From an uncultured Clostridia bacterium (GTDB lineage Bacteria > Bacillota > Clostridia > TANB77 > CAG-508), in the NCBI GenBank assembly GCA_944392665.1, contig CALXXJ010000003.1, positions 3,797 through 67,796 on the forward strand: 64,000 nt of DNA, given 5' to 3'. Both the position numbers and the translations under genes were made by a program. Shown here piece after piece: positions 20,637 to 61,496 of this stretch (its first letter is position 1; every line of letters begins with the position of its first letter). The notes under the pieces were generated by a model. It made no database searches and was not told where the DNA came from. It was given only the letters and a program-made list of their open reading frames with translations.

Positions 20637-20686
20637 GGGATTTTGGGGACGGACTCAAATTTCCCTTTTTTCTTTTGCGAACATTT

Positions 20687-20718
20687 TGTCCTTTTGGGGA
20701 CGTTTCTGTTTGGGACAT
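20687..20718 (+). repeat. REP-like palindromic repeat, copy A (TGTCCTTTTGGGGACGTTTCTGTTTGGGACAT)
   Basis: Exact 32-mer. The flanking TTTTGGGGACGG at 20641-20652 is a partial extra copy. Confidence 0.75.
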
Positions 20719-20875
20719 TTTTATATAAAATTAATTTTAGAAAAGTAAATGTATTAAATTTTATTTATTCTGCAACGCATGCTAAGTAAAACAAATAAAA
20801 TTGAATATATTTACTTTGTTTTTTTGTTGTAAGTGAAAAAAACGTCCAAATGGAAACGTCCCCAATTGTCCCAAA

Positions 20876-20908
20876 ATGTCCCAAACAGAAACGTCCCCAA
20901 AAGGACAT
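20876..20908 (-). repeat. REP-like repeat, copy B (inverted relative to A); fragments precede it at 20840-20875
   Basis: ATGTCCCAAACAGAAACGTCCCCAAAAGGACAT is the reverse complement of the consensus. AAACGTCCAAATGG and GAAACGTCCCCAATTGTCCCAAA are partial copies. Confidence 0.75.
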
Positions 20909-20950
20909 AATTTTTGTTTTTCTTAATATCATTTAAAAAGGTGATATTTT

Positions 20951-22462
20951 TTGAGAAAGACAAAACTATTTTTTATTAATGGTATTATTTTAACCATAAC
21001 CGCACTTAGCATGCGTGGTATTGGATTAATTTTTAATATATATGTAGCTAATAAAGTAGGTTCTGAAGCTATTGGTATCTTTAGCTTAATTATGTCTGTT
21101 TATAATTTTGCAATTACAGTTGCTACTTCTGGGATTGGAATTGCTTGTACTTGTATTGTTTCAGAGGAATTTGCAAAAGGAAATTATATTACTGGCATTA
21201 AAGCTGTAAAAACCTCTATTATATTTGCTGTATTGTTAGGGTTTCTTTCTTCTGGTCTTGTGATTCTATTTGCCCCTATCATTTCTACTATCTGGTTAAA
21301 AAATATGGTTTCTGAAATTCCTCTTTACCTAATTTCACTAGGACTACCATTGATTTCTGTTTCCTCTGTGATTGGTGGGTATTTTTCTTCTGTTGAAAAA
21401 CCATACAAAAGTGCTATTTCACAAATTTTAGAAACCAGTGTAAAAATCATCGCTACTGTTTGTTTACTGTATTTCAATCCTTCAAAAGATGTAGAATCCA
21501 TTTGTATTTACCTTATCTTAGCTGATGTCATTTCTGAAATATTCTCCTTTAGTTTAAATATCATCTTTTATCTGATTGATAGAAGAAAATACATATCTAA
21601 AAGAAGTTTACCAGTACAGATGAAGAAAAAGATTTTTACGATTGCTTTTCCAATTAGTATCACTTCTTGCATCCGTTCTGGGCTTTCTTCTTTAAAACAA
21701 TTTCTAATTCCAATTCGATTAGAATTGTCCGGCATTTCCTATTCTTTAGCTGTTTCTAACTATGGATTAATTAGTGGAATGGTTATGCCTGTTATTATGT
21801 TTGCAAATGTTTTAATTGGCTCTTTTAGTGGTTTATTAGTTCCAGAATTTTCACGATTGCTTGCTGGTGGAAATTATAATAGACTAAAAACAGTTTGTGA
21901 TACGATTTTTAAAGTTACATTTATTTTTTCTATTTGTGTGACAGGTGTTTTTATTATATTTGCTAATGAAATTAGCCTTATGGTGTATCAATCTATAGAA
22001 GCTGGTAAATGGATAAAAATATTAGCACCTCTTATCTTTTTTATGTATATTGACAATATTATTGATAATATGTTAAAAGGCATCAATGAACAAGTAAGTG
22101 TTATGATTTGTAACATTATTGATTTATTAGTTACTATTTCGATTATCTTTTTTCTTGTTCCGATTATGGGAATGTATGGATATATTTTAAGTATTTTTGT
22201 AAGTGAACTTTTAAATTTTACGATTAGTAGTATTCAACTAAAGAAAAAAATTAATTATTCTGTGAATTTTAAAAAATTTATTATAAGACCTATTTTTGCT
22301 TGTCTAGTGTCTTATTTACTGATTAAACTATTACCTATCACTTTTTCAAATTTTTCATTAAATACCATTATGCAAATTGCCTTATTCATCTTGTTTTATT
22401 TGATTTTTATGATTGTATTTGATAGAAAACGTGTTTATATGAAAATAAAAGAATTTTATTGA
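20951..22462 (+). CDS. MOP-superfamily polysaccharide-biosynthesis flippase (SpoVB/MurJ-like)
   Basis: 503 aa and about 14 TM helices. The N-terminus resembles SpoVB and polysaccharide biosynthesis proteins. It has a TTG start with an AAGGTGA RBS. Confidence 0.5.
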   Translation: MRKTKLFFINGIILTITALSMRGIGLIFNIYVANKVGSEAIGIFSLIMSVYNFAITVATSGIGIACTCIVSEEFAKGNYITGIKAVKTSIIFAVLLGFLSSGLVILFAPIISTIWLKNMVSEIPLYLISLGLPLISVSSVIGGYFSSVEKPYKSAISQILETSVKIIATVCLLYFNPSKDVESICIYLILADVISEIFSFSLNIIFYLIDRRKYISKRSLPVQMKKKIFTIAFPISITSCIRSGLSSLKQFLIPIRLELSGISYSLAVSNYGLISGMVMPVIMFANVLIGSFSGLLVPEFSRLLAGGNYNRLKTVCDTIFKVTFIFSICVTGVFIIFANEISLMVYQSIEAGKWIKILAPLIFFMYIDNIIDNMLKGINEQVSVMICNIIDLLVTISIIFFLVPIMGMYGYILSIFVSELLNFTISSIQLKKKINYSVNFKKFIIRPIFACLVSYLLIKLLPITFSNFSLNTIMQIALFILFYLIFMIVFDRKRVYMKIKEFY

Positions 22463-22535
22463 TTTAAAATCATTTTATAAAATATGTTCAAGCAGAGACT
22501 AAAAAAAGTCTCTACTTGAACTAATGCAATGAATT

Positions 22536-23525
22536 TTACTCTACTCCTGTAGCAATAACTGTAACAACAACTTTGTCATCTAAAGATTCATCTGTAATCG
22601 TTCCAAATACAACATTAGCATCTTCATTAATTAAATCATTAATTTTACCTATACCATCATTAATTTCACTTAATGCCAATTCAGAGTTTCCTCGAACATT
22701 AAAGATAACCCCTTTTGCATTATTAATTTTATTTTCTGTAAGAGCATTGTCGATGGCTTGATTAACTGCATCTATCATTCTGCCTTCTCCTTCGGCCTCT
22801 CCGATTCCCATATAAGCCATTCCTTTATATGTCAACATAGTTGTAATATCTGCAAAATCAACATTAATATCTCCTACTGATGTAATTAAATCTGTAATAC
22901 TTTTGATTCCTTGTTCTAATACATCATCTGCCATTTTAAACGCATTAATGACACTCATCTTTTGAGTTCCAGCAATTTTCAATAATTTATCATTTGAAAT
23001 TAGAATTAAGCTATTAACATGTTGTTTTAATTTTTCAATTCCTGCATCTGCTCTACTTGATCTCAATCTTCCTTCAAAAAGAAATGGTTTTGTAACAATC
23101 GCAATTGTTTGAATTCCCATTTCTTGTGCAATTTCTGCAACTACTGGGATTGCTCCTGTTCCAGTTCCTCCTCCCATTCCTGCTGTTAAGAATAATAATT
23201 GTGTACCTTCTAATAATTTCTTAATATCTTCTTTACTTTCAATTGCTGCTTTTTCTCCCATATCAGGATTAGCTCCTGCTCCTAATCCTTTAGTGGTTTC
23301 TTTTCCAATTTGTAATACATTTTCCATTTTTGTTTTATTTAACATCGCAAGCTCTGTGTTGATAAAATAAAATTCAACATCTTTTACTTTATCTTCAACC
23401 ATTTGTCTAACAGCATTATTGCCACCTCCACCAATTCCAATGACTTTTATTTTTGGGATTGACGTTTTTATTTCTCCATATATATTTCCATAATTGTTTC
23501 CATATTTATTTTCTATTTGTATCAT
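22536..23525 (-). CDS. FtsZ-like tubulin-family GTPase, a paralog without a C-terminal tail
   Basis: [13 protein letters not shown], the GGGTGTG tubulin signature, GLGAGANP and a T7-loop NVDFAD are all present. At 329 aa it ends at the globular core (..VTVIATGVE) with no linker or C-terminal peptide, and it has a 25-aa N-terminal extension. It is monocistronic and outside any dcw cluster. Confidence 0.8.
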
Positions 23526-23757
23526 TTTTACAACCTTCCTTTTCTAATTTACTTTTGTATGTATCGTTTAGTATTATATAGTTTCCTTTTAAAATTTTCA
23601 ATACCAATCTGTACTTTTTTGAAAACTTCATAGATAAATACCAATATTTTATCACATAAACCATACTTAAAGATATTTTTACGAAAATTTGTTTTTAAAA
23701 ACTATTGCATTTTAATTTTTTGAATGATATAATCGTACATATGTTTGGAGGTATGTT

Positions 23758-25056
23758 ATGGATATTTTTGATAAATTAAAAATACTTGCTGATTCTGCTA
23801 AATATGATGCTTCTTGCAGTTCTAGTGGTAGTGATCGAAAAAATATAAACAATGGAATTGGAAATGGCCATGTTTCTGGTATTTGTCATAGCTGGGGTGC
23901 AGATGGTAGATGCATTTCTCTTTTAAAAATTTTATTTACAAATGCCTGTATGTATGATTGCAAATATTGTATTAATCGCTCTTCCAATTCTGTACCTAGA
24001 GCTACCTTTACGCCTCGTGAAGTTGCAGATTTAACCATTCATTTTTATAAACGAAATTACATAGAAGGACTATTTTTAAGTTCAGCAGTTATCAAATCTC
24101 CTGATTATACAATGGAAAGATTAGTTGAAACAGCATCTATACTAAGGAATGAATATCATTTTAATGGATATATTCACTGTAAAACTATTCCTGGTTGTAG
24201 TCAAGAATTAATTGATAAATTAGGGGTTTTAGTAGACAGGATGAGTATTAATATAGAACTTCCTTCAAATGATAGTTTGAAATTATTAGCGCCACAAAAA
24301 GAAAAAGATGGAATTTTAAAACCAATGACCTATATTTCCAATACCCTAAAATTAAATAAAATGGATAAATCGAAATATAAAAAGAAATTTGTTCCAGCAG
24401 GTCAAACTACACAATTAATGGTTGGTGCTACACCTGAAACAGATTTAAAAATATTAAAACTTTCTGAAGGAATGTATAAATCTTTAAAACTAAAAAGAGT
24501 CTATTATTCTGCTTATGTTTCTATTAATAATGATAAAAACTTACCTACTTTAGAAAAGCCTCCCCTTTTGAGGGAAAATAGACTTTATCAAGCAGATTGG
24601 CTACTTCGATTTTATGGATTTCAAGCAGATGAATTATTAAATGAAGAACATCCAAATTTCAACACTTTATTAGACCCTAAATGTGATTGGGCTTTAAGAA
24701 ATTTAGATAAATTCCCAATAGAAATCAATACTGCCAATTATCACACTTTACTTAGAATTCCTGGAATTGGTGTCATTAGTGCCAAGAAAATTATTACTGC
24801 TAGAAGAGAATTCTTGTTAGATTTTGAAAGTCTAAAAAAATTAGGTGTTGTCTTAAAAAGAGCACAATATTTTATAACTTGCAAAGGAAAATATTTTTAT
24901 GAAGTCAATAAATTTAACAAAAAATTTATTGAAACCAATTTATTATATACTGAAAGAAACACCATTCCACAAAAGAAATTTGAACAATTATCTATGTTTG
25001 ATACATTGTTACCTACAAAGGAGGATAAAATAAAATGTCTAACTGGAAGCTTGTAA
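23758..25056 (+). CDS. putative DNA modification/repair radical SAM protein (TIGR03916-like) with a C-terminal HhH
   Basis: CxxxCxxC (CMYDCKYC), an N-terminal Cys cluster and an HhH (LLRIPGIGVISAKKI). It forms a conserved pair with the downstream gene. Confidence 0.7.
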   Translation: MDIFDKLKILADSAKYDASCSSSGSDRKNINNGIGNGHVSGICHSWGADGRCISLLKILFTNACMYDCKYCINRSSNSVPRATFTPREVADLTIHFYKRNYIEGLFLSSAVIKSPDYTMERLVETASILRNEYHFNGYIHCKTIPGCSQELIDKLGVLVDRMSINIELPSNDSLKLLAPQKEKDGILKPMTYISNTLKLNKMDKSKYKKKFVPAGQTTQLMVGATPETDLKILKLSEGMYKSLKLKRVYYSAYVSINNDKNLPTLEKPPLLRENRLYQADWLLRFYGFQADELLNEEHPNFNTLLDPKCDWALRNLDKFPIEINTANYHTLLRIPGIGVISAKKIITARREFLLDFESLKKLGVVLKRAQYFITCKGKYFYEVNKFNKKFIETNLLYTERNTIPQKKFEQLSMFDTLLPTKEDKIKCLTGSL

Positions 25057-25793
25057 ACACAACCTATTTATATGATGGTACATTTGATGGATTATTAACC
25101 ATTGTTTTTGAGAGCTATTCTCATAAAACATTACCACAAAAAATTGTTTCAGAGGAGGAATATACACAAAATTTTTTAGATAAAACACAATATATAAATA
25201 CCAATTATGAAAAGGCAAAACGTGTTTTTGAAGGAATCAACAAAAATATTTGCTATGAAGCTTTATATAATAGTTTTTATGCTTTTTTATCAGATGGAAA
25301 AGAAAAAGAAATTAAAATTTTAAAATATTTATGTGATGGGTTTGACATTGGTCCTAAAATTAACACCATGCTTACTATTTCTTATGTCTTTTCTGTTATT
25401 AATATGAGAAAAAGAGCTTTATCAGAATGCCATAAGTTAAAAGGATTGCTTCGATTTATGGAAATTGGAGAAAATCTATATTATGCTTCTATTCATCCAG
25501 ATAATAATATCATAGAACCTTTAGGACATCACTTTATTAGAAGGCTACCTACACAAAACTTTATCATACACGATAAAAATAGAAATATTTGTTTTTTATA
25601 CAATACACAAGAATACAAAATTATTGATAGTACTAATTTAACAATTCCTGATATTACTGAAGAAGAACAAAAATATCAAGAACTTTGGAAACTATTTTTC
25701 AAAACCATTGCCATACAAGAAAGAAAAAATACTAGATGTCAAATACAGTTTATGCCTAAAAAATATTGGCAAGATTTAATTGAAGAACCATAA
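25035..25793 (+). CDS. TIGR03915/DUF4130-family putative DNA-metabolism protein, partner of the radical SAM protein
   Basis: 252 aa, overlapping the upstream gene by 22 nt (translational coupling). This is the canonical pair arrangement. Confidence 0.6.
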   Translation: MSNWKLVNTTYLYDGTFDGLLTIVFESYSHKTLPQKIVSEEEYTQNFLDKTQYINTNYEKAKRVFEGINKNICYEALYNSFYAFLSDGKEKEIKILKYLCDGFDIGPKINTMLTISYVFSVINMRKRALSECHKLKGLLRFMEIGENLYYASIHPDNNIIEPLGHHFIRRLPTQNFIIHDKNRNICFLYNTQEYKIIDSTNLTIPDITEEEQKYQELWKLFFKTIAIQERKNTRCQIQFMPKKYWQDLIEEP

Positions 25794-25795
25794 AA

Positions 25796-25824
25796 TTGCC
25801 AAAGGGGACATGCCATTTTGGCAA
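25796..25824 (+). repeat. hairpin repeat family 2 (TTGCCAAAGGGGACATGCCATTTTGGCAA), terminator for the radical-SAM pair
   Basis: Self-complementary 9-bp stem followed by CTTTTC. Confidence 0.6.
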
Positions 25825-25911
25825 CTTTTCTTAAATAAGTTTTAAGTCAATCAGAAATTTATAAAATTTTAAATTTTTGATTGACTTTTATTAATTGATT
25901 AAAATTAAGGG

Positions 25912-25940
25912 TTGCCAAAATGGCACGTCCCCTTTGGCAA
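25912..25940 (-). repeat. hairpin repeat family 2, inverted copy (TTGCCAAAATGGCACGTCCCCTTTGGCAA), abutting the permease stop
   Basis: Reverse complement of the 25796 copy with one mismatch. Another palindrome (AGTCAATCAGAAATTT..AAATTTTTGATTGACT) is nested between the copies. Confidence 0.6.
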
Positions 25941-25943
25941 CTT

Positions 25944-28535
25944 TTAAATATTTTCTTTTCTAATGGTTTCAATAATATTCTGATTTTTAGTTTTCTTAAC
26001 AGCATATCGCATCGTCATAAAGATAATGGCAAATACAAATATAATAGAAATCAAAATTGGTATTATAGGAAGTTCATAATCTGTTGTATAGACATCTGCT
26101 GTAACTGTATAGATTAGATAAGATAATGCAACACCTACTGGCAATCCAAATATAAGTGCTTTTAAGCCATATATAAAACTTTCATAATGAATCATTCTCT
26201 TAAATTCTTTGTTTGTCATACCTATAGATTTTAATATGGCAAATTCTCTATTTCTAAGTGCCATATTAGTAGTTATCGTATTAAATATATTAGTTACACC
26301 AATAACGCTAATCACAGCTATAAATCCATATATAAATATCGATACAATTAGATTCATATTTCTTGCTGCTCTTACATCCTCTTCTGTATTATAAATATTA
26401 TCTTGATTGGTTTTATCAATTTCTACAATTTCTTCTTGTAATTTATATGGATCTTCTGCATTTATATGCATAGCAACAACATTATGTTCAAAGTTTTCCA
26501 TCATTTCATCTGAGATAATAATAATCGGATGTGTATCTTCTTGAAAAGATAGGCCTAATGGATATTTATCTGCTCTTTTAGCAATTTTAATACTTCCTTT
26601 TTCTGTTAAATTTCCTTCTTCATCTTGCATTTTATAATATTCTAATGTATCTCCCGCATTTAAATTCGTTAGATTTGTTTCTACTCGTTTGACACCATCT
26701 CTTCCCTCTTCATATTCATATAAAATTCTTGTATCAGAAAGAATTGCTTCATCTTTTACTTCATCATAATTTAATCCTAATTCTGCTACATAATTTCTAT
26801 AAGCTTCATCACCAAGTGAATAAATAATAAGTATGGTATTCACTTCTTCTGAATAATATTCTAATGCTTCCTCTGTATATATATCAGGATTATCCATATG
26901 TACATATGTATCTTTTAAAATCATATATTCTTTGATTCCATCTAAATTTTTAATCTTATCAAAATAGGCTTCTGTATCTTCTTCATATTGATTACTATAT
27001 ACTGTTAAATTAATCCTAGATTCTTGATACTCTAAAGAAGATACTCCAAATACACTTTCTGCAAAGGCATTCATAGAGATAAATAAGACAATACTTAGAA
27101 ATATGGAAAATATAGTTGTTCTATATCTTTTTCTACTTCTTCTAAAATTCTTTCTGGCAATCACACCTTCTATTCCAAATAATTTTTTCGTTAGTTTATA
27201 TTCCTTATGTTTATGCTTATTCTTTTTTACTTTTACATCTGAACTTTCTCTTATGGCATCAATTGGTGAAATTTTTCCTGCTCGATAACTTGGTCTAATT
27301 AGTGAGATGATAATCATAACAATGGATACAATGATTGCAACGATAATTGCTCCCCATGATATGGTTAACTGTAATTCAAAATTATCAATTAATGGTGTAC
27401 TTCCTGAATTGATAATTCCATTAACAATTGCTAACACGATTCCTATTGCTACAATTCCTATCACAATTCCTAATGGTATAGAAATTAGACCTAATACAGC
27501 ACCTTCAAAAAGGATACTTTTTCTAATTTGTTTTGCCGTTGCTCCTACACTTGCTATCATTCCTAATTCTCTTGTTTTTTCTGTAAGAGATATACTAAAA
27601 CTATTCTTGATAACAAAGGCAGAAGTGAAAACAATAATACCAATTACAATCACTAACATAGTTATCACAAAAGTTTCTACTCTATCACTTTTGAAAATTC
27701 CCATGTAATATAATAAATCTTGGTTTTCAGAAATATTTGTCTCGTCAATTTGTAAATCATTTTTCAAATAATCTTCAAAGTCATATACTTCTGTTGGATC
27801 TTTTAATATAATAGACATATTTACATTTCTGGTATCATCAATCTTGTCTAATTTTGTTATCATGGTATACCCTGGAGCAGAATAACTCTCACTATTTAAT
27901 CGTTCCATGATACCTACAATTGTATATGTTTTTTTGGTACTTGCAACAAATGTTTCTTGTTCTAAATCATCTTCAATTCCACTTTCTTTTCTATCTAATC
28001 TATCTTGGTCTGTATAATATGGATTGGTTTGATTTAATATATATTCTCCTTTATATCGATTACCAATATCAAATTCTATGGTATCACCAACATTCCACTC
28101 TACTTTTCCATTTTGAATAACATGTTCTGGTATCACAATCTCATTTTCATTTTCTGGTAATCTTCCTTCTAATAAAACAATTCCTCCATTTTGCAAAAGT
28201 TTTTCATCATATCCTTCAATATAGGCATAAGGTTTGTTTTCATTTTGAGATTCTTCTAATGGTGCATATCCAATCTCTTGTGATATTTGTAATTCCTCTA
28301 TTTTTGCATTATTCTCCAAATATTTTTCATTTTCTTTTGATACATCTTGTATACGAATATGATAATTTCCATTTGTTTTAATTTCTCTTTCTAGCATTGT
28401 TTTTTGAATACTAACTGTAAATGTAGTGATTGCACATATTAAAGCAACAGAAAGAGAAATTCCAATAATGGTAACAATGGTTCTTTTTTTATTCAATTTT
28501 AAATTTTTCAGTGTCAATGTATTTAAAATTTTCAT
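25944..28535 (-). CDS. FtsX-family ABC transporter permease (BceB/MacB-like) with a large extracytoplasmic domain
   Basis: 863 aa with N- and C-terminal FtsX 4-TM bundles flanking a large extracytoplasmic domain. Confidence 0.8.
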   Translation of the reverse strand: MKILNTLTLKNLKLNKKRTIVTIIGISLSVALICAITTFTVSIQKTMLEREIKTNGNYHIRIQDVSKENEKYLENNAKIEELQISQEIGYAPLEESQNENKPYAYIEGYDEKLLQNGGIVLLEGRLPENENEIVIPEHVIQNGKVEWNVGDTIEFDIGNRYKGEYILNQTNPYYTDQDRLDRKESGIEDDLEQETFVASTKKTYTIVGIMERLNSESYSAPGYTMITKLDKIDDTRNVNMSIILKDPTEVYDFEDYLKNDLQIDETNISENQDLLYYMGIFKSDRVETFVITMLVIVIGIIVFTSAFVIKNSFSISLTEKTRELGMIASVGATAKQIRKSILFEGAVLGLISIPLGIVIGIVAIGIVLAIVNGIINSGSTPLIDNFELQLTISWGAIIVAIIVSIVMIIISLIRPSYRAGKISPIDAIRESSDVKVKKNKHKHKEYKLTKKLFGIEGVIARKNFRRSRKRYRTTIFSIFLSIVLFISMNAFAESVFGVSSLEYQESRINLTVYSNQYEEDTEAYFDKIKNLDGIKEYMILKDTYVHMDNPDIYTEEALEYYSEEVNTILIIYSLGDEAYRNYVAELGLNYDEVKDEAILSDTRILYEYEEGRDGVKRVETNLTNLNAGDTLEYYKMQDEEGNLTEKGSIKIAKRADKYPLGLSFQEDTHPIIIISDEMMENFEHNVVAMHINAEDPYKLQEEIVEIDKTNQDNIYNTEEDVRAARNMNLIVSIFIYGFIAVISVIGVTNIFNTITTNMALRNREFAILKSIGMTNKEFKRMIHYESFIYGLKALIFGLPVGVALSYLIYTVTADVYTTDYELPIIPILISIIFVFAIIFMTMRYAVKKTKNQNIIETIRKENI

Positions 28536-28564
28536 TTTATTTCACTTCCTTTTCAAGCATCCCT

Positions 28565-30775: not shown

Positions 30776-30806
30776 ATTTCTCCTTTTGTCCTTTTGAAAT
30801 TGTTTC

Positions 30807-30838
30807 TGTCCTTTTGGGGACGTTTCTGTTTGGGACAT
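30807..30838 (+). repeat. REP-like repeat, copy C, in the response regulator-to-kinase spacer
   Basis: Exact 32-mer. A partial duplication (TGTCCTTTTG...GTTTCTG) lies just upstream at 30786-30806. Confidence 0.75.
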
Positions 30839-30923: not shown

Positions 30924-31602
30924 CTATCGTTCAATCTTGTAACCTAATCCTCTGACTGTTTTAATAATTTCTGGTTTATTAGGATCGTTTTCTATTTTTT
31001 CTCGAATTCTTTTAATATATACTGTTAAGGTATTATCGTTTACGAAGTTTTCTTCATTATCCCAGATATAAGATAATATTTGCTCTCTTGTTATAATTTT
31101 TCCTCTGTTTTCAAATAGCATTACTAAAATCTTGTATTCTAATGCTGTTAATTCTAATTCTTGGTTATCTTTTAATACTTTTCCGTGTTGTATAATTGAT
31201 TTCTACATTTTTAATTTTTATTGTTTCTTCTTTTTCTTTCTTTACATTATGTCTTAATACATTTTTTATCCTAGATAATAATTCTCCTGCATGAAATGGT
31301 TTGGTAATATAATCATCTGCTCCTAAGTCAAATCCTTTTACTATATCTTTTTCTTCATCTAATGCTGTTAAAAATATAGTCGGAATTTCTTGTATGTTTT
31401 TCATTTTTTGATATAAATCATATCCTGTACCATCTGGTAAATTAATATCTAACAACATTAAGTCATAATCATTGTTTTCGATTTTTTCAATACCTTCTTT
31501 TACAGTTTTTGCTGTATGAATAACAAATCCCTCTGATTGTAAATAATAAGAAACGGTATTTGATATATTTTTATCATCTTCTATTAATAATATTTTTAAC
31601 AT
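30924..31602 (-). pseudogene. OmpR-family response regulator, frameshifted in a homopolymer (T4 at 31179-31182)
   Basis: The receiver domain (31165..31602) and the winged-helix domain (30924..31121) are in different frames. Removing one A from GAAAAG restores ..NYTTRKVLKDNQELELTALEYKILVMLFENRG.. Confidence 0.7.
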
Positions 31603-43251: not shown

Positions 43252-43284
43252 ATGTCCCAAACAGAAACGTCCCCAAAAGGACAT
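43252..43284 (-). repeat. REP-like repeat, copy D, abutting the accB stop codon
   Basis: ATGTCCCAAACAGAAACGTCCCCAAAAGGACAT. It generates the spurious ORF 43252..43482. Confidence 0.75.
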
Positions 43285-43748: not shown

Positions 43749-44072
43749 ATTTCTACCTCCGTTTTTATTTTTATTTTATACTATTTTTTGAAATTTGAAA
43801 AGTAGCAAATATAAAAATATTATAAAATAAACTTTTGCAAGGATGATGATATTTTAGATTGAATAAATTTTGAATGTGATTGGAGATATCTTAGAATTTG
43901 TTAATCATATATTGAGGGATGTTCACGGTACTCACATAGTGAGGGTCTGAGTGAAAGAGGCTCAATATATGATGTTACAAATTCTTAAATATCGTATTGA
44001 ACCGAAAAATTTATAAAATCTAAAATAACATCATCCTAATTCAATTTATACTTTCAAAATGATAAAATGTTT

Positions 44073-45314: not shown

Positions 45315-45504
45315 CTTTCTCTTCCTTTCATTTTTTCATACTACTATTATTATTTCACATATATTATATTATTTTAAAACAAATTCAAAGTAGTATATTG
45401 TGCATTTTTGATGTCAACTTCAAGCTGAAGGCATACTTTTTGTATGTCAAAGTTTGAAGTTGATATCGAAAATGTGCAAGATGCTGCTTTCAATTTATTT
45501 TTTA

Positions 45505-45560
45505 TTGTATAGGAAAAATCTGCTTTTATCTTGACCCTATATGGATTTTTCCGTATACAA
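45505..45560 (+). repeat. repeat family 3, copy 2, in the fabG-fabF spacer
   Basis: TTGTATAGGAAAAATCTGCTTTTATCTTGACCCTATATGGATTTTTCCGTATACAA. Confidence 0.6.
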
Positions 45561-47332: not shown

Positions 47333-47362
47333 TGTCCATTAGGGACGTTTCCTTTTGGACAT
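47333..47362 (+). repeat. REP-like repeat, variant copy E (TGTCCATTAGGGACGTTTCCTTTTGGACAT)
   Basis: A variant of the consensus. It forms a perfect 30-bp inverted pair with 47434-47463. Confidence 0.7.
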
Positions 47363-47433: not shown

Positions 47434-47463
47434 ATGTCCAAAAGGAAACGTCCCTAATGGACA
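47434..47463 (-). repeat. REP-like repeat, variant copy F, the exact reverse complement of copy E, abutting the fabH stop
   Basis: ATGTCCAAAAGGAAACGTCCCTAATGGACA. Confidence 0.7.
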
Positions 47464-47464
47464 A

Positions 47465-50109: not shown

Positions 50110-51252
<1,143 letters not shown>

Positions 51253-51307
51253 TTATTTGCTTTTTCTTTATTTGCTTTTTCCATATTTCATTTTTCGTAG
51301 CTTTATT

Positions 51308-51781: not shown

Positions 51782-51812
51782 TTTATCACCTACTTAATTC
51801 TTGTTTTTAGAT

Positions 51813-52835: not shown

Positions 52836-52892
52836 GATTCCTCCTCAACGCTTTTCTTTTAATGTAATATTGTCCCTTCTTGTTTTTAACAA

Positions 52893-52921
52893 GGTATAGG
52901 AAAAGCGATTTTTCCTATACC
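52893..52921. repeat. hairpin GGTATAGGAAAA-gcgat-TTTTCCTATACC, a core-less relative of the family 3 arms
   Basis: A 12-bp perfect stem. The arms resemble TGTATAGGAAAAATC/GATTTTTCCGTATACA of the 45505 copy. Confidence 0.45.
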
Positions 52922-52928
52922 ATAAAAA

Positions 52929-52961
52929 ATGTCCCAAACAGAAACGTCCCCAAAAGGACAT
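52929..52961 (-). repeat. REP-like repeat, copy G, abutting the stop of the 52963..54315 gene
   Basis: ATGTCCCAAACAGAAACGTCCCCAAAAGGACAT. Confidence 0.75.
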
Positions 52962-52962
52962 T

Positions 52963-54315: not shown

Positions 54316-54340
54316 ACTCTATTTTCCTTTATCTTTTATT

Positions 54341-55973
54341 CTACTTTTTTTCAAATAACGTAAATTGATAACTACAATTTTGATATGCTATTTTATATTC
54401 TTTTGCTTCTATGATTATATTCATATTTTCTGTTGGTACTTCTTTATATATATTACTTCCCACTGTTCCTACAACCCATACTCTTCCTTGATAATCATCT
54501 AATGCTTCATCATAACTATATACTGTTTCCATTGCTGGTGCATATGCCTTATATGCTTCTTCTACATCCCAATTCCATTGGTTATAGAAGTATTGTTTAT
54601 TATCTGGAAAATATGAGGCTAATACTCCTCCGTACTCCTATTTCGTTGTATATGATAATATCACCTTTTTGTATATTTTCTTCCATAAAACTCATTACTT
54701 CTTGGTTTGTTGTATCATAATTGTTTTTTATAGTATTATAGTTTCCAATAAAACTTAAGATTAATATTATTGCACATATCATTTTAGTTACCCATTTTCT
54801 CTCTTCTTTTGCCATGAAAAAGGCAAAAACAAAAATGTATAGTCCTGTCAATGTTAGCAAATATCTTCCTACTAATATTGGACTTCCTATTAATGATATG
54901 ATTAAAACTGCTGCTATTACTGTTATATATATGATAATAGATATAACAGCTGGTAAAATTTTTTCTTTGTTTTTCTTTGCCTTATATATTCTGTACCCTA
55001 TGTAAATATATAATAATATGGATACTATTAATGAAATAATGGCTGTGGCATTAATCGTTGAATCTGTTTGTACTCTAAATTGAAAACTTGGTACCTCTAT
55101 TAAAGTGTTTAAATTTAATTGAATCCAAAATCCTCCACCTACACGTGTCATTTGTTCTATTAAAAATAATAGCCAAGGAATATATAATATTACTTGAATG
55201 ATTGCTGCTATTATAAATTTTTTTAATGGTTTTGATATCTCTTTTTTGTCTTTTATGTCTAAATCTTTTTGTTTTCTTGCTTTTAATACATTTTTTATTA
55301 AGAATATAAATAATATCAAATTTATAAGTCCTGCTGTTGCTAGAGCATAATAATGCGTATAACATGATAATATGCTAAATATAGCAAATATAATCAAGTT
55401 TTTGTTTTGATTTTTCATTACATTTTTATCTTTTACTGATTTGTAAAATCTATATGCATATATAGCCATGATTGTTACCAATAAATATGCTAATGAATAC
55501 ATTCTAATCTCTTGACTATATATACATATAACTGGTAAGAAATACACTAAAAACGAAAATAGCATTCCTACCTTTTCTCCAAAATCTTTTCGTATATGTG
55601 TATATCCTAATACTCCTAAAATAGCTATTGCTAAAACAGAAAATAATCGAAAAGCAATGTTTTGATCTCCAAAAATCATCCATATAATATGTAAAATCCA
55701 GTAATATAGTGGTGGATGAACATCATGTCCTGTTATGTTCCATATTTCGCTAAAACTATGTCTCGCAATAGAAACAGAATAACTTTCATCAAACCAAATA
55801 TTTTCATGAAAAGCTGATAAACTGATAAATACAATTCCTAATACAATAATTCCTATATGTATATATTTATTTTTTTTGTCAATTTTTTTTAGTTGGCCCA
55901 TATTTATTCCTTTCTCCACTCTATTATTATTTTTCAACAATAATAAGTGGAACATTATTTTATTATTGTCCAT
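54341..55973 (-). pseudogene. GT-C fold glycosyltransferase (family 39/PMT-ArnT-like), frameshifted near 54619-54645
   Basis: The N-terminal polytopic GT39-like region (..YSVSIARHSF..DVHPPLYYW..) ends at 54600. The C-terminal soluble domain continues in another frame (open 54341-54618). An imperfect 10-bp direct repeat TACTCCTCCG/TACTCCTATT lies at the junction. Confidence 0.5.
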
Positions 55974-56024
55974 TAAACAACATTAAAAACGTCCACTTAT
56001 CTTTTTTAATTTATTCTATTTAGT

Positions 56025-57290
56025 TTAAACCAATTCTTTTTCAGTTTGTGCTTCATGATTATCAGAAACATCTGCTATTTTTATACTTCTTACATGGTTT
56101 ATCTTCTCCCAAGAAGTATTTCTAATAAATAAGCACTTAAAGTTTATACATATCCATGTTAATAAAAATAGTGGATAACATAGTAGTCCTTTTGCCATTG
56201 GCTTTATCTTTCTTCCATCTAACCACATTGCAAATATTCCTACAAATATTGGTAAAACAAATGTTGGAACTAAATACATAATTAGATTCTTAATTAGTTC
56301 TGCAGTTGTGATAGATGCTGAATTATACATAATAAAGTTTGTTAATAATAATGCAATTGTTATGATAAACATTGGTATACTTCCAACAATATATAGTAAA
56401 CCATCAAGATTTATCATTTTCTTGTTTTCTTTAGCTGCTATTGCTAATTCCTTTGTATATCTTTTTATACATTGAATATGACCAACTGTCCATCTACTTC
56501 TTTGTGACCAACTTTGTCTAAATCCTGTAGGTTGTTCATCATACACAATTGCATCTGTTGCCCAACCTAGTTTTTTACCTTTTATAATTCTTTTTAAAGA
56601 AAACTCAATATCTTCTGTTAAAGTTTCTGTATCCCAACCTTGTGGTTTGATAACATCAAATTTCACCATAAAACCTGTACCATTTAATAATGGTGATAAT
56701 CCGATATTATATCTAGCTAAATGATAAAATCTATGCATTTGCCAATAGAAAATAGCATATCCTGCTGTTATCCAGTTATCAGATGGGTTCTTAATATCTC
56801 TGTAACCTTGTACTACATCTTCTCCTTGGCATAGTTTTTTATTCATATTTTTTATAAAGTTCTTATCAACGATATTATCTGCATCAAATACAAAGAAAGC
56901 GTCATATGGTGCATTTTCTGCAATTTTTTGTTGTAAAAACCAATTTAAAGCATATCCTTTTGTTTTCTTAGTTTCATCAAATCTTTCATAAACAATTGCA
57001 CCAGCTTCTTTTGCAATTTTTGCTGTGTTATCTGTGCAGTTATCTGCAATAACATATATGTCATATAAATCTTTATCATATGTTTGATTTTTTAAACTCT
57101 CAATTAAATTTCCTACAACCGCTTCTTCATTATGTGCTGGTATAATTGCCATAAAACGATGGTCTTTTTTTACTTTTAAAGGTTTATCCTTTAATTTTAC
57201 TAAAGAACATAAACTAACAACAACTTGATATAACCAAAATATTGTTACCATCCATACTAAAGCTTCTCTTAGTATATATAAATAATCCAT
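56025..57290 (-). CDS. processive family-2 glycosyltransferase (PgaC/IcaA/cellulose-synthase-like)
   Basis: 421 aa with an N-terminal TM helix, D,D,D motifs, QRSRW, and C-terminal TM helices. Confidence 0.75.
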   Translation of the reverse strand: MDYLYILREALVWMVTIFWLYQVVVSLCSLVKLKDKPLKVKKDHRFMAIIPAHNEEAVVGNLIESLKNQTYDKDLYDIYVIADNCTDNTAKIAKEAGAIVYERFDETKKTKGYALNWFLQQKIAENAPYDAFFVFDADNIVDKNFIKNMNKKLCQGEDVVQGYRDIKNPSDNWITAGYAIFYWQMHRFYHLARYNIGLSPLLNGTGFMVKFDVIKPQGWDTETLTEDIEFSLKRIIKGKKLGWATDAIVYDEQPTGFRQSWSQRSRWTVGHIQCIKRYTKELAIAAKENKKMINLDGLLYIVGSIPMFIITIALLLTNFIMYNSASITTAELIKNLIMYLVPTFVLPIFVGIFAMWLDGRKIKPMAKGLLCYPLFLLTWICINFKCLFIRNTSWEKINHVRSIKIADVSDNHEAQTEKELV

Positions 57291-57410
57291 TTTTCTACCT
57301 CTCTTTTTAATAATACTTTCTATATATTATTATACTACCTTTTATATTATACTATTATTGGCAAAATATTGCAACTTTTTTAGTAAAATTTAATATATTT
57401 TTAATAAATA

Positions 57411-58718
57411 TTATCTACCTCTTTCTCCACGCATGTTTTCAGCATCTGCTTCTATATCTTCTTCTATGTTTTTTTGGAATTCTTCTAAAGTTTTATCTTC
57501 ATCCCTATTTTCCCATGCTCTTTCTACCATTCCTCTAACTTCTCTTTCCGTAAACTTATCGGCAATTTGTTCATTTTTCATTAATAGAGCTACTGTATCA
57601 TCTACATGATTATGATTTGATGTATTTGGGTTTCCGTCCATATCTTCTTGTTGCATTTCTTCACATGGTTCTTCCTTGGCCTTTTCATGCTGTTTTGCTT
57701 CTTGGTATGAAGCTTCTACTGAACGATATCCATCTTGATATTCTTGTGATAATTTTTGCGTTTGTTCATCCATACCTTCTACTGCATTTTTCGAATTTGA
57801 AGTTTCTAATTGCTTATCTAAACTTTTATTTCCTTCAATACCATTTCCACCTATTGTTTTATTAGCTGAATGATATACTTCTACTTCTCCATATTGCCCT
57901 TTTTCTATTCCAATTGTTTCTTGGCCTTGTACTCTTAATCTAGTTAATACATCTCCTTTTTTTGCAGGTTGATTCTTATTTTGACTTACTTGGTAAGTTT
58001 GCTCTTCTGGATTAGTTCCTTCTTGTGTATCATTTTCTAAATCTAAGGCTCTCACAATTGGTTTTCCATCTCTTCCTGTTTTATTGGTTATAACAACTGC
58101 TTCATATCTTGATGAATGTCCTTCTATTCTTTCTCCATTTTCGTCTCTTAAATTGTCTAACTCATCTGATTCTACAATTCCTAGTTTTCCACCTTTTTCA
58201 TCTGAACCTTTAATTTTTCCTGCCTTTTCTAATTTTTCTCCTAGTGAGTCCATGTCTGTTGCCATACTTCTCATATCTACTTCTTGTTTTATTTGTATAT
58301 CTCCTGTTGTATTTTCTATTTTGTCTTCTTTTCCTCTGATTGTCTCATCTTTTCTTCTATCTCTCTTTTGTGTTAAATCCTCTTTTTCTGGTTCTTTTTT
58401 TTCTTCTCTTCCTACTGTCTTTTGATATCCCATTTGCCTATCATAAACATTTTCTTCTTTTTCCTTTTCTGGTTCTGTTTCTAAAATTTCTTCTTTTCCT
58501 GCTGTTTCTATTGTTTGTGTTATTTCATCTCTTATTTGATCAGATAACTCATTTTCTAATGTATTTTCTCTAAATACAATTAATGTATCTGCCATAATAT
58601 CTGGGTCAAACACACCAACAACTTCATTCCCTAAAACATATTTATATAAATCTCCCTCTTTCGTGACACCCAATTGTTTATTTTCGCCATTCACATTTAT
58701 ATTACCTAAAACTTTCAT
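57411..58718 (-). CDS. hypothetical acidic, E/K/D/G-rich low-complexity protein (predicted largely disordered)
   Basis: 435 aa with no TM helix and a structured N-terminal ~50 aa. Co-oriented upstream of the GT2 gene. Confidence 0.4.
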   Translation of the reverse strand: MKVLGNINVNGENKQLGVTKEGDLYKYVLGNEVVGVFDPDIMADTLIVFRENTLENELSDQIRDEITQTIETAGKEEILETEPEKEKEENVYDRQMGYQKTVGREEKKEPEKEDLTQKRDRRKDETIRGKEDKIENTTGDIQIKQEVDMRSMATDMDSLGEKLEKAGKIKGSDEKGGKLGIVESDELDNLRDENGERIEGHSSRYEAVVITNKTGRDGKPIVRALDLENDTQEGTNPEEQTYQVSQNKNQPAKKGDVLTRLRVQGQETIGIEKGQYGEVEVYHSANKTIGGNGIEGNKSLDKQLETSNSKNAVEGMDEQTQKLSQEYQDGYRSVEASYQEAKQHEKAKEEPCEEMQQEDMDGNPNTSNHNHVDDTVALLMKNEQIADKFTEREVRGMVERAWENRDEDKTLEEFQKNIEEDIEADAENMRGERGR

Positions 58719-59016
58719 AACTTTTTTTATGTATATATAATATACATATCTCCTTTCTTTTATTCTAGTACCTGGTTTTTTCTCTTTCCCTCATTTCTAT
58801 TATAGTATAATTCTCATTTTTCTTCAAGAATTTAAGGAAATTTTAATTTACTATTTTTGTATTTTATGGTATAATAAAAGGTAGAGATAAATATTTACTT
58901 AAATAGGAATTTAACCTTGTTACATAACGGAAACTCTTAATAAAATTAATGTAAAAAATAAATTTCCTATATAATAGCAAACATTTCTCAAAATCATAAA
59001 ATAAAAAGGGGTTTTT

Positions 59017-59556
59017 ATGAAAAAAGAAATGAAAGAATATAATTCTATAAGTAATCAAGAATTCTTAAATATTATTGAAGAATTAGTAAATAATAAGACC
59101 GTACAAGAAATGAAAAAGTATAGACAACATTATGAAACCACCTGTTTTGACCACTGTTATATGGTTTCTTATTATTGTTATTTAATATGCAAAAAATACC
59201 ATTTAGATTATATATCAGCCACAAGGGCAGCCATGTTACATGACTTATTCTTATATGACTGGCGTGTTCGTCAACCTGGCAGAAAAGGTTTACATGCTTT
59301 CACTCATGGAAAAACAGCTTGTGAAAATGCAAGTAAACTATTTGATTTGAACCAAAAAGAAAAAGATATGATTCTTACCCATATGTGGCCTGTAACAATG
59401 CAATTCCCTACATCAGTTGAAGGATTCATTCTAACTTTTGTTGATAAGTATTGTGCAGTTTCTGAAACTTTAGAAGTTATAAAATCTAGAATGTTCATGA
59501 AAAAAGCTTTCAGATATGCTTATGTTTTCTTTAGTCTATTAATAATACGATTTTAA
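59017..59556 (+). CDS. HD-domain phosphohydrolase-family protein
   Basis: H..HD motif (AAMLHDLFLYDW). 179 aa. A terminator follows at 59578-59607. Confidence 0.55.
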   Translation: MKKEMKEYNSISNQEFLNIIEELVNNKTVQEMKKYRQHYETTCFDHCYMVSYYCYLICKKYHLDYISATRAAMLHDLFLYDWRVRQPGRKGLHAFTHGKTACENASKLFDLNQKEKDMILTHMWPVTMQFPTSVEGFILTFVDKYCAVSETLEVIKSRMFMKKAFRYAYVFFSLLIIRF

Positions 59557-59577
59557 AAATTTGTTTTATATATAAAA

Positions 59578-59607
59578 AACGTTTCTTATCCAAGAAACGT
59601 TTTTTTG
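59578..59607 (+). terminator. rho-independent terminator (AACGTTTCTTATCCAAGAAACGTT plus T7)
   Basis: Seen directly, downstream of the HD gene. Confidence 0.65.
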
Positions 59608-59731
59608 TTGAATAGGAAAAATAAAGTTTTCATTTTCTATTCTCTTTTTGCTATTTTTGTAATATAATGGCAATGTATAAGAAATATAAATATATTTCTT
59701 ATCTACTATTTAAGAAAATCAGGTGATTTTT

Positions 59732-60610
59732 ATGAAAAAAATTTTATTCAAAGGCTGTGGAACAGCTATCAGTACACCTTTTGATGAAAACGGTGTTAAT
59801 CTTAAAGAATTTGAAAGACTTGTTAATTTTCAAATTGAAAATGGTGTAGATGCCATTATTGTATGCGGAACGACAGGAGAATCTTCTACCATGACAGAAG
59901 AAGAAAAAGATGCTACCATTTCTTGTGCTGTCAAAACTGCTAATGGAAGAGTACCAATTATCGCAGGCACTGGTGGTAATAATACCATGAAAGTTATTGA
60001 AAATTCTAAAAAAGCAGAAGCTTTAGGTGTTGATGGACTTTTGATTGTTACACCCTATTACAACAAATGTACTCAAAAAGGATTAATTGAACATTATAAA
60101 GTAATTGCTGAAAGTGTATCTTTACCAATCATACTATACAGTGTACCAAGTAGAACTGGTGTCAATATCTTACCAGAAACTTGTTTAGAATTGTCCAAAA
60201 TAGATAATATTGTTGCTATTAAAGAAGCAAGCGGCAATTTATCACAAGTTGCTGAAATTGCACATTTATGTGGAGATAATTTACATATTTATTCAGGAAA
60301 TGATGATCAAATATTACCAGTATTATCATTAGGCGGACTTGGTGTGATATCTGTTTTATCAAATGTAAAACCACAATATACACATGACATGGTTCAAAAC
60401 TTTTTTGATGGTAATATTGAAAAAGCAACAAAAATGCAATTAGATGCTTTACCTTTAGTAAAAGCCTTGTTCTCAGAGGTTAACCCTATTCCTGTTAAAG
60501 CTGCTTTAAATCATATTGGCTATAACTATGGAATTCCTAGATTACCACTTACTAAAATGAGTAGTGATAAAGAACAAAGATTGATTGAGGAATTGGATAA
60601 ATTGGATTAA
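59732..60610 (+). CDS. dapA: 4-hydroxy-tetrahydrodipicolinate synthase
   Basis: Start MKKILFKG with an AGGTGA RBS, GTTGES, and an active-site Lys region. 293 aa. Confidence 0.9.
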   Translation: MKKILFKGCGTAISTPFDENGVNLKEFERLVNFQIENGVDAIIVCGTTGESSTMTEEEKDATISCAVKTANGRVPIIAGTGGNNTMKVIENSKKAEALGVDGLLIVTPYYNKCTQKGLIEHYKVIAESVSLPIILYSVPSRTGVNILPETCLELSKIDNIVAIKEASGNLSQVAEIAHLCGDNLHIYSGNDDQILPVLSLGGLGVISVLSNVKPQYTHDMVQNFFDGNIEKATKMQLDALPLVKALFSEVNPIPVKAALNHIGYNYGIPRLPLTKMSSDKEQRLIEELDKLD

Positions 60611-60725
60611 TTAGATTAATATAAATAAAATAAATGAAATTAAAAATGCTATGAGCAACAAATATATAGTAAAAATACAAATTAGAAAACATAACACTAA
60701 ATTTTATAAAATATGGAGGTATCAA

Positions 60726-61475
60726 ATGTTAAACGTATTCGTAAATGGTTGTAATGGAAAAATGGGAAATGTGGTATGTAGTTTAGTAGAAGAAAATGAA
60801 AATATGCAAGTCATTGGTGGATTTGACAAAGTAAGTTATTCTGATTCTAAATTCCCAATTTTTACAGAAGTAGAAAATATTGATGTAAAACCAGATGTCA
60901 TCATTGACTTTTCACTTCCTGTTGCAACACTAAATATATTAAATTATGCAAAAACAAATAAAATACCAATGGTTATTGCCACAACTGGATTTACAGATGA
61001 AGAAACAAAAATAATTGAAGAAGCAAGTAAAACAATTCCTATCTTTAAATCTGCTAATATGTCCTTTGACATTATGCTTATGAAAAAAGTTGTTTCTTGG
61101 CTTGCACCACTTTTAAAAAATACAGATATTGAAATTATTGAAGCACATCATAATAGAAAAGTGGATAGTCCAAGTGGTACTGCCCAAATGTTAGCAGATA
61201 GTATTAATGAATCTTTAGGAAATACGCTTCATTGCGAATATAACAGACATGATAAACATGAAAAAAGAGATAAAAACGAAATTGGTATGTCTTCTATCAG
61301 AGGTGGAAATATTGTTGGTGAGCATTCTGTTCAATTTATTGGCAATTTTGAAACTTTCGAAATTAAGCATACCAGCTATTCTAGAAATGTATTTGCAGAA
61401 GGTGCTTTAAGAGCTGCTGAATTTATTGCCAGCCAACAGCCTGGTATGTATGCTATGGAAGATATGTCCTTTTAG
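60726..61475 (+). CDS. dapB: 4-hydroxy-tetrahydrodipicolinate reductase
   Basis: Start MLNVFVNGCNGKMG with a GGAGG RBS and EAHHNRKVDSPSGTA. The stop codon TAG (61473-61475) lies inside REP copy H. Confidence 0.9.
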   Translation: MLNVFVNGCNGKMGNVVCSLVEENENMQVIGGFDKVSYSDSKFPIFTEVENIDVKPDVIIDFSLPVATLNILNYAKTNKIPMVIATTGFTDEETKIIEEASKTIPIFKSANMSFDIMLMKKVVSWLAPLLKNTDIEIIEAHHNRKVDSPSGTAQMLADSINESLGNTLHCEYNRHDKHEKRDKNEIGMSSIRGGNIVGEHSVQFIGNFETFEIKHTSYSRNVFAEGALRAAEFIASQQPGMYAMEDMSF

Positions 61476-61496
61476 GGATGTTTCTGTTTGGGACAT
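61465..61496 (+). repeat. REP-like repeat, copy H (two substitutions), overlapping the last 4 codons and stop of dapB
   Basis: TGTCCTTTTAGGGATGTTTCTGTTTGGGACAT. Confidence 0.7.

Follow-up and report, generated by a model that had tools for sequence, protein, structure and literature searches.

A dispersed intergenic repeat of uncultured gut Clostridia is probably the terminal repeat of REPIN-like elements with a cognate RAYT-class transposase

We analyzed a stretch of 64,000 nucleotides (the window, at its full length) from contig CALXXJ010000003.1 of an uncultured Clostridia bacterium (GenBank assembly GCA_944392665.1), in which an initial annotation had pointed to a dispersed, palindrome-like repeat of approximately 32 bp. 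The window is chromosomal DNA that carries housekeeping genes, with a GC content of 24-33% per 2-kb segment (mostly 27-30%). Copies of the repeat lie beside VanW-like and flippase-like genes, a histidine-kinase gene, queA, dapB and a fatty-acid operon, in which they occur in the orders accB-F-fabZ and fabH-F..R-fabD (F and R, copies in the two orientations). The results from the window and from related loci indicate that the motif is very probably the terminal repeat of REPIN-like non-autonomous elements, whose cognate enzyme is a Y1 HUH transposase of the RAYT/TnpA_REP class (REP, repetitive extragenic palindrome; REPIN, REP doublet forming a hairpin; RAYT, REP-associated tyrosine transposase).

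When the window was searched with the 32-mer TGTCCTTTTGGGGACGTTTCTGTTTGGGACAT, five exact copies were found, together with a further copy with 2 mismatches (61465-61496, plus strand) and two copies of a 30-nt variant, TGTCCATTAGGGACGTTTCCTTTTGGACAT, that are identical to one another. Matches to TGTCCTTTTGGGGACGTTTCTGTTTGGGACAT appeared in 0/100 dinucleotide-preserving shuffles of the window. Thus, eight copies stand against 0 expected, and the family described in the initial annotation is real. The positions given there were right, except that three end coordinates were one base too long (see Table 1). The partial pieces it listed all exist: 20840-20875 is an array of GTCCC units and 30786-30806 is a truncated 5' piece, but 20641-20652 belongs to a different GGGGAC module (20637-20665). 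A possible degenerate copy suggested at 55967-55996 did not rise above chance. The inverted termini ATGTCC/GGACAT, and also GTCC/GGAC, are present, although the palindrome that they form is weak. Placement at gene 3' ends describes only part of the copies, as others lie directly upstream of ribosome-binding sites (RBS) or start codons (20876, 30807 and 47333). Further, inverted pairs of the 32-mer family occur at two loci only, not three; another inverted pair (25796-25825/25911-25941) is of a related second family that had not been listed.

Several of these sites could be followed in related genomes; L-numbers below (L007, L068 and so on) denote the sampled related loci or contigs that were compared with the window. 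The copy at 43252-43283 is fixed in every strain and species examined, with a downstream spacer that varies, and the copy at 30807-30838 is also kept in L095. Nested or tandem pieces like that at 30786-30806 were found in L016, L027 and L048. At the fabH/fabD doublet the spacer is unrelated in L104 and L035, and the arrangement of the copy at the end of dapB recurs in L077. The gamma module at 20637-20665 forms a hairpin of -13.6 kcal/mol followed by a U-run and, taken with the T-run up to 20676, resembles an intrinsic terminator. L053 does not have this module at the orthologous position.

Table 1. Repeat copies and associated modules in the window, with recurring doublets and lineage variants in related loci.
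Feature	Position or sequence	Strand	Remarks
Gamma module GGGATTTTGGGGACGGACTCAAATTTCCC and T-run	20637..20665 (T-run region to 20676)	+	inserted after the VanW-like gene's TAA stop, before the F copy at 20687
Canonical copy, doublet left arm	20687..20718	+	0 mismatches
Partial-copy array, GTCCC/GTCCCC units every 10-15 nt	20840..20875	-	adjoins right arm
Canonical copy, doublet right arm	20876..20907	-	43 nt upstream of the flippase-like gene start
Family-2 repeat TTGCCAAAGGGGACATGCCATTTTGGCAAC, doublet left arm, between convergent genes	25796..25825	+	9-bp stem, GGGGAC in loop
Family-2 repeat, doublet right arm	25911..25941	-	
Truncated/decayed 5' piece TGTCCTTTTG..GTTTC	30786..30806	+	abuts the full copy at 30807
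Canonical solo copy	30807..30838	+	TGTCC end toward RBS/start (30775) of the minus-strand histidine-kinase gene
Canonical solo copy	43252..43283	-	begins directly after the accB TAA stop, within the fab operon (accB, F, fabZ)
30-nt variant, one doublet arm	47333..47362	+	abuts the fabD RBS
30-nt variant, other doublet arm	47434..47463	-	1 nt past the fabH TAA stop
Canonical solo copy	52929..52960	-	2 nt past a stop codon, upstream of queA
Copy with 2 mismatches	61465..61496	+	G10A makes the dapB TAG stop inside the repeat
Recurring doublet, CAJFRV	L007 3785-4078; L051 2266-2560; L051 7240-7534		
Recurring doublet, CAWVJB	L045 and L052		
Lineage-variant flanking repeats (L111, L113, L115)	GGGACGTTTCCTTTTGCTCCTTTTGGAGCAATTAGGGACACATC; GGGGACAGTCCCCATGCCTATAAAATGTCGCATTGGGGACAGA; TGTCCTTTTGGGGACAGGTCCAAATGGACATCTA		all with GGGGAC

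The 20-nt core of the repeat, GGGAYGTTTCTGTTTGGGAC, was found in at least 110 stretches from approximately 21 species of uncultured gut Clostridia represented by metagenome-assembled genomes (MAGs). These MAGs are labelled 'Clostridia/Bacillota/Eubacteriales' and come from chicken, goat and other gut samples; several of the loci are window orthologues, with DNA identities of 82-95%. The density of the repeat is approximately 1 per 5-8 kb. The initial annotation had named rarity of the motif, or descent of all copies from one segmental duplication, as grounds for abandoning a mobile repeat family. The motif is widespread, and the unrelated flanks of the copies show that these do not descend from one segmental duplication.

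To determine its anatomy, we pooled 187 copies of the repeat from the window and 110 loci, with at most 6 mismatches allowed. The conserved unit, TGTCC-WW-TTGGGGACGTTTCTGTTTGGGACATTTT, has a sharp edge on its 5' side, at T1 of TGTCC, and extends to approximately position 35. Positions 6-7 are variable (TT, AA or CA), and approximately one third of the copies extend 3' into TTTTATGTAAA. The arms are 32-44 nt long and hold two or three GGGAC/GTCC boxes. Three other modules with a GGGGAC box frequently lie next to the motif: gamma (GGGATTTTGGGGACGGACTCATTTT, found 37 times in the sampled loci), beta (TTTGTCCCATTGGGGACACATCTTA, in two species and always fused to the motif) and Family 2 (TTGCCAAAGGGGACGTGCCATTTTGGCAAC, always in convergent pairs, of which the window holds one, 25796/25911). 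This second family (TTGCCAAAGGGGACRTGCCATTTTGGCAAC) also has paired copies, separated by 50-85 bp and with variant loops, in L013, L071 and L098. A literature search on the repeat sequence itself returned chance primer matches only, and the Rfam scan of the window at the gathering threshold gave no match at the repeats.

The TGTCC end of the repeat always points toward a gene and the GGGACATTTT end toward the interior of the spacer; 176 of the 187 copies lie outside called open reading frames (ORFs). For 166 copies there is a called ORF on the TGTCC side, which is a co-directional ORF upstream in 109 and a gene start facing the copy in 57. Among the 109, 61 copies start 0-4 nt past the stop codon of that ORF, and in four, including the window copy at 61465 (dapB), the stop codon is formed inside the repeat by G10A (TTTTAGGG). 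The 57 copies abut the RBS of the divergently read gene, typically 12-90 nt from its start codon. The 5' flank reads TTT in 38% of copies and TAA in 20%.

Such copies could be host RNA or DNA signals that are kept by selection and not mobilised, acting as weak terminators, exonuclease barriers in 3' untranslated regions (UTRs), 5'-UTR stabilisers or binding sites of a protein that recognises GGGGAC. This explanation draws on the closeness to stop codons (65/109 copies with a co-directional upstream ORF lie no more than 5 nt from the stop or overlap it), on conservation of the 32-mer above that of neighbouring coding DNA at orthologous sites, and on the forward-strand RNA, which folds into a hairpin of two tiers with U4-5 behind it. 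The canonical copy reaches -11 kcal/mol (z -2.4); the 30-nt variant folds better, with -13.9 kcal/mol (z -4.1). The fold is specific to the forward strand because of G·U pairs, and a terminator scan called the 5' hairpin terminator-like. As terminators, however, approximately one third of the copies would be reversed, toward gene starts (57/166), and copies would stand inside the fab operon. Behind each of two window copies lies a separate hairpin that makes a better terminator (ggtataggaaaa..ttttcctatacc after the copy at 52929-52960, and a terminator-like hairpin at 61526-61558, judged genuine, downstream of the copy at 61465), and terminators need no conserved loop sequence. The explanation is also opposed by the dispersal of whole doublets at unrelated sites and by a RAYT-like gene that is flanked by the repeat and co-varies with it, both described below. 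We therefore regard host signals as an unlikely explanation of the family. They are compatible with mobilised elements because known REPs have such secondary roles, and the terminator, mRNA-hairpin and binding-site options of the initial annotation are possible in that secondary sense.

An inverted partner was found within 450 nt of 86/187 copies (46%), always in the convergent arrangement with TGTCC outermost. The spacers of 38 clear doublets measure 19-448 bp and often contain other elements. Whole doublets, including their interiors, recur at unrelated sites both within one genome and across species; the recurring elements are 88-98% identical, whereas their 150-nt flanks are at background similarity. 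No target-site duplication (TSD) of 2-9 bp was detected above the shuffled control. At orthologous sites the motif is identical, and the adjacent spacer is replaced, inverted or furnished with extra insertions resembling MITEs (miniature transposable elements with inverted repeats).

Rearrangements at the repeats were also observed. A 36-nt deletion in L127 and L129, strains of the window's species (window 20858-20893), lies between direct GTCCCC units of the array and takes out most of the right arm at 20876-20907 as well. In L068 (5027-5823), two direct copies bracket a 183-aa ORF without a Pfam match, and L145 (2145-2176) has a single hybrid copy without the 765 bp of L068; the difference is a precise deletion or insertion through the repeats. 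In the orthologous doublets L014 3659-3810 and L067 4249-4400, the 88-bp interior is inverted between two species (69/88 matches in reverse versus 60/88 in forward orientation). MITE-like palindromic insertions unrelated to the repeat are present or absent between strains or species at window 45385-45524, within window 43749-44072, at L077 3530-3790 and at L123 850-1060. Small mobile elements make the intergenic DNA of these genomes a mosaic.

The inverted interior of L014 and L067, the precise presence or absence of the 765-bp segment between direct copies in related genomes, and the general layout of inverted repeats 19-448 bp apart between genes could suggest that the convergent pairs are invertons, in which promoter-containing intergenic cassettes undergo site-specific inversion for phase variation. 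We consider this extremely improbable. Over half of the copies are solo, recombination at active sites spaced approximately one per 8 kb, in both orientations, would leave the chromosome scrambled, and there is no associated invertase gene. Further, both window doublets occur in one orientation only in all 8-10 same-species contigs, which is weak as a test, since the majority form is all that assemblies display.

The sampled loci were searched for ORFs enclosed by F(+)...R(-) at a distance of approximately 1 kb, and the same ORF of 256-262 aa was recovered in five species. By tblastn, this RAYT-like gene is present in one copy in each of six sampled genomes, a number that rests on parts of each MAG. 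In five of these six genomes the F(+)...gene...R(-) bracket is complete; the loci that show it are L068, L105, L090, L109, L056 and L145, and one side of it is visible in L058, where the contig ends. The initial annotation had favoured REP elements mobilised by a RAYT-type transposase, in the manner of bacterial interspersed mosaic elements (BIMEs) or MITEs, and had proposed a search for an IS200-like RAYT gene flanked by the same repeat. This search was positive in six related genomes, and it is that option which the evidence supports.

The gene was detected in the closest species, CAJFLB (L058, approximately 95% DNA identity to the window), and also on the candidate contigs L145/L146, which come from the same sample cohorts as the window. 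From these relatives at approximately 95% identity and the candidate same-cohort contig, we infer that the window's own genome carries the gene, which is absent from the window itself. In L109 (4004-4771, MAG CAJFRV), the RAYT-like gene has an in-frame stop and a 196-aa ORF, while the tblastn alignment is full length; this gene may be a pseudogene. A different gene, a PD-(D/E)XK 'transposase' (PF12784, Rpn/YhgA-like) at L015 3934-5366, is bracketed by diverged inverted copies, probably by coincidence because of the repeat density.

The RAYT-like ORF matched Pfam Y1_Tnp with E-values of 1e-15 to 1e-17. The best NCBIfam model was NF047646, 'REP-associated tyrosine transposase' (REP_Tyr_transpos), with 59.6-74.4 bits, compared with 20-25 bits for the IS200 model. 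The residues HxH (H60/H62), Y119 and N123-P124 are invariant in 36 homologues. Note that the Y---NP signature marks class 2, TnpA_REP-like proteins (Quentin et al. 2018, PMC6006769). The protein thus has the HUH motif, the catalytic tyrosine and the Y---NP signature of a Y1 HUH transposase of the TnpA_REP class. A single-sequence search of the PDB with the protein gave noise only, but a profile search of PDB sequences retrieved only 4ER8, E. coli TnpA_REP bound to a REP hairpin, and the same protein was the closest structure by fold comparison. In the predicted structure of the 256-aa protein, the C-terminal ~130 aa are all-helical with high pLDDT. This domain gave only sub-threshold matches to HTH_26/HTH_3 in Pfam and no sequence match in a profile search of the PDB. 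We found 845 homologues in public data, one of which is named 'REP element-mobilizing transposase RayT' by one source.

The gene lies in the same neighbourhood in genomes whose RAYT-like proteins are from 100% down to 51% identical: mreB, a radical-SAM (MiaB-like) gene, a small ORF, the RAYT-like gene, radA, disA and a peptidyl-prolyl isomerase gene. Further, a palindrome, AAAAGTATAGCA-N13-15-TGCTATACTTTT(T), occurs 50-150 bp upstream of every RAYT-like gene (L068 at approximately 6000-6045; also L105, L058, L090, L109, L056, L111, L113, L115 and L145). It is kept even where the flanking repeats differ, and it may serve the upstream gene as a terminator or the RAYT-like gene as an operator.

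The homologues in L111, L113 and L115 (55-63% identity) are flanked by other inverted repeats, and in L111 and L113 the locus's own flanking variant is also dispersed in the surrounding 20 kb. Between lineages the GGGGAC box is constant, but the short stem switches from TGTCC/GGACA to TGCTCC/GGAGCA. Joint change of a repeat and the Y1 gene that it flanks is the hallmark of REP-RAYT systems (PMC6006769, PMC3116915).

The long, perfect inverted repeats with 5'-TG...CA-3' termini, the variable spacers of 19-448 bp and the other MITE-like palindromic insertions in these genomes would also suit classical MITEs, that is, elements with terminal inverted repeats (TIRs) of 32-44 bp that are cut and pasted by the DDE transposase of an unsampled autonomous insertion sequence (IS). 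Such elements would be expected to show TSDs, and none of 2-9 bp exceeded the control; moreover, a paralogue search among the 728 ORFs of the sampled loci revealed no multi-copy transposase. Among the single-gene brackets examined, the single-locus Y1 gene was the only gene recurrently enclosed by the TIRs across genomes, and persistence of the repeat across lineages whose RAYT-like proteins are only 51% identical is atypical of MITEs. Classical MITEs are therefore highly unlikely.

Several observations weigh against REPIN-like elements with a cognate RAYT. The 64-kb window itself contains no RAYT-like gene by tblastn, and the NF047646 scores lie below the 80-bit equivalog cut-off of that model. 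The consensus of the 187 copies has no GT[AG]G tag, and the canonical copy folds only modestly (RNA -11 kcal/mol, DNA -4.8 kcal/mol, z approximately -2.2 to -2.6). The canonical copy, GGGGACGT, agrees with GGGGWSAS at 6/8 positions. There is no strand bias relative to GC skew, unlike in IS608-type insertions. Every same-species contig examined carries the window copies in identical, fixed form, and recent movement was therefore not observed; strain comparison at these copies revealed no fresh insertions or inversions, only the 36-nt deletion and unrelated MITE polymorphisms. Finally, the bracket could have been inherited from one ancestral event because synteny is conserved.

A canonical REP has a stable, GC-rich hairpin with 5' GT[AG]G at its base; the repeats fall outside that narrow definition because they have neither the tag nor a strong hairpin. 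The TIR/TIRYT subtype is a better fit. The TIRs are long (32-57 nt), and the sequence is GGGGACAC or GGGGACAG in the beta module and in the variants of L111, L113 and L115, which agree with GGGGWSAS at 8/8 positions. Judged by protein length, the C-terminal extension and the GGGGAC box, and not by phylogeny, the enzyme most probably is of the TIRYT type, that is, subclass 2.1. We concluded that the element represents no new kind but a REP/TIR-RAYT system of the TIRtron type, here in uncultured gut Clostridia of low GC content. That the RAYT-like protein mobilises the repeats is what we infer by analogy with characterized systems.

In the proposed mechanism, the motif of 32-36 bp would be a terminal inverted repeat, present either solo or as a convergent doublet F-spacer-R with TGTCC outermost, and its cognate enzyme would be a single-locus, vertically inherited protein whose gene, in the relatives, lies between inverted repeat copies. 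On the model of IS608 TnpA and E. coli TnpA_REP, the HUH domain may bind a GGGGAC-containing hairpin in single-stranded DNA, and the enzyme would cut and rejoin at the element ends. Doublets capable of folding back might then be copied to new intergenic sites without target duplication. In such compact genomes, selection would spare only insertions between a stop codon and the next RBS, and the element ends would abut both because only these insertions survive. A target preference for T-W-W, which includes TAA, may contribute to the placement. The host might also use the repeats as hairpins in 3' UTRs, as partial terminators or to stabilise 5' UTRs; such roles are plausible but secondary, and the model does not require them.

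Other readings of the motif were tried and rejected. As promoters, the copies have no consistent -35/-10 elements, and a promoter scan yielded fewer sites than in shuffles. TTATGTAAA has no XerC-arm symmetry and was dropped as a dif/Xer-like site. The resemblance of GGGGACG and GTCCCAAA to a CRISPR repeat was set aside, as the copies are dispersed and not arrayed.

Elsewhere in the window, the only Rfam match was a T-box leader (RF00230, 111 bits, 38337-38564, minus strand), which lies upstream of an 888-aa ORF (35583-38249). A scan of the window for tRNA and tmRNA genes found none. Upstream of the histidine-kinase gene, an OmpR-type response regulator is split into the ORFs 31165-31602 and 30924-31121 (window 30924-31602, minus strand), which may reflect a frameshift, a pseudogene or an assembly error.

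Work on REP/REPIN-RAYT systems has been almost confined to Proteobacteria, and a Clostridial system widens the known host range. Here, a clade of gut Clostridia has a RAYT-like gene at a fixed chromosomal position and repeats at a density like that of E. coli. Conservation of the repeat across lineages whose RAYT-like proteins are 51% identical is a point of interest in itself. Because the repeat sequence changes with the RAYT lineage, these genomes offer a natural comparative series for recognition by the enzyme, with the GGGGAC box as the candidate. Further, the repeats explain many short assembly breaks and intergenic rearrangements in these MAGs. A broader proposal, which we consider doubtful and put forward only tentatively, is that a Group 1/subclass 2.1 RAYT sustains a dense, ancient population of GGGGAC-box doublets that has been co-opted as punctuation of gene boundaries, set exactly behind stop codons and ahead of an RBS, and drives modular replacement, inversion and deletion of intergenic cassettes; Firmicutes would then have evolved, independently, a second REPIN-like symbiosis, one that has a host function.

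Among known systems, IS200/IS605 elements (IS608, ISDra2), with their TnpA, and palindrome-associated transposable elements (PATEs) share with the Clostridial system the HUH/Y1 catalytic fold, the lack of target duplication and subterminal hairpins recognised as single-stranded DNA, the last by analogy for the Clostridial repeat. However, these IS elements are multi-copy and autonomous, whereas the Clostridial gene is single-locus; their ends are asymmetric instead of forming inverted repeats, with a specific 4-5-nt target and a strand bias, whereas the Clostridial ends are symmetric without strand bias; and the IS200 model scores of the Clostridial protein are much lower. A tblastn search with an approximate IS608 TnpA query gave no match, the query being too distant. 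The Correia/NEMIS elements of Neisseria and bacterial MITEs are alike in size (100-300 bp), in their 26-40-bp TIRs, in their position at gene boundaries and in potential effects on transcripts. In contrast to the Clostridial elements, which have no TSD and come with a RAYT-like gene, Correia elements cause duplication of a TA target and lack a Y1 enzyme of their own.

The E. coli REP/BIME-TnpA_REP system (4ER8) and the Pseudomonas REPIN-RAYT systems (Groups 2 and 3) also have short extragenic repeats, in hundreds of copies (in the Clostridia, 187 copies pooled from the window and 110 loci), a convergent doublet as the replicating unit, no TSD, and a single-copy, vertically inherited Y1 gene flanked by repeats, which for the Clostridia is seen in partial MAGs. 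The Y---NP motif, frequent adjacency to stop codons and mosaic clusters with other modules are likewise shared. Unlike these systems, the Clostridial repeat has no 5' GT[AG]G tag and a weak, AT-rich stem, with 32-44-nt arms, two or three GGGAC/GTCC boxes and spacers of 19-448 bp; the protein has approximately 130 extra C-terminal residues and falls below the equivalog cut-off, and the host is a low-GC Firmicute.

The Clostridial system probably fits the TIRtron class. TIRYTs are RAYT-like genes flanked by long TIRs, many of which share GGGGWSAS, and the TIR families are dispersed as singles, dimers and clusters (Di Nocera et al. 2013, PMC3733652). TIRYTs have been equated with TnpA_Y1 subclass 2.1, which comprises long proteins with a C-terminal helix-turn-helix (HTH) resembling Bac_DnaA_C, HTH_23 or HTH_28 (Quentin et al. 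2018, PMC6006769), and subclass 2.1 corresponds to RAYT Group 1, which Bertels et al. (2017, PMC5581495) report from the Clostridia as well. The Clostridial system resembles them in that a RAYT-like Y1 gene lies between long inverted repeats and not GTAG REPs, in its GGGG-A-C-type box (GGGGACAG/GGGGACAC in relatives and the beta module, GGGGACGT in the canonical copy), in the dispersal of the repeats singly, as dimers and in clusters, and in a long protein with a C-terminal helical extension. The published TIR families are 'moderately abundant' and TIRYTs 'less productive' (PMC3733652), no REP-like sequences were found beside subclass 2.1 genes by Quentin et al. (PMC6006769), and REPINs have been associated with RAYT Groups 2 and 3 only (PMC5581495; bioRxiv 10.1101/2021.07.10.451892), a statement with which the Clostridial repeats may conflict. 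The Clostridial density of approximately 1 per 5-8 kb equals that of classical REPs, and doublets are common.

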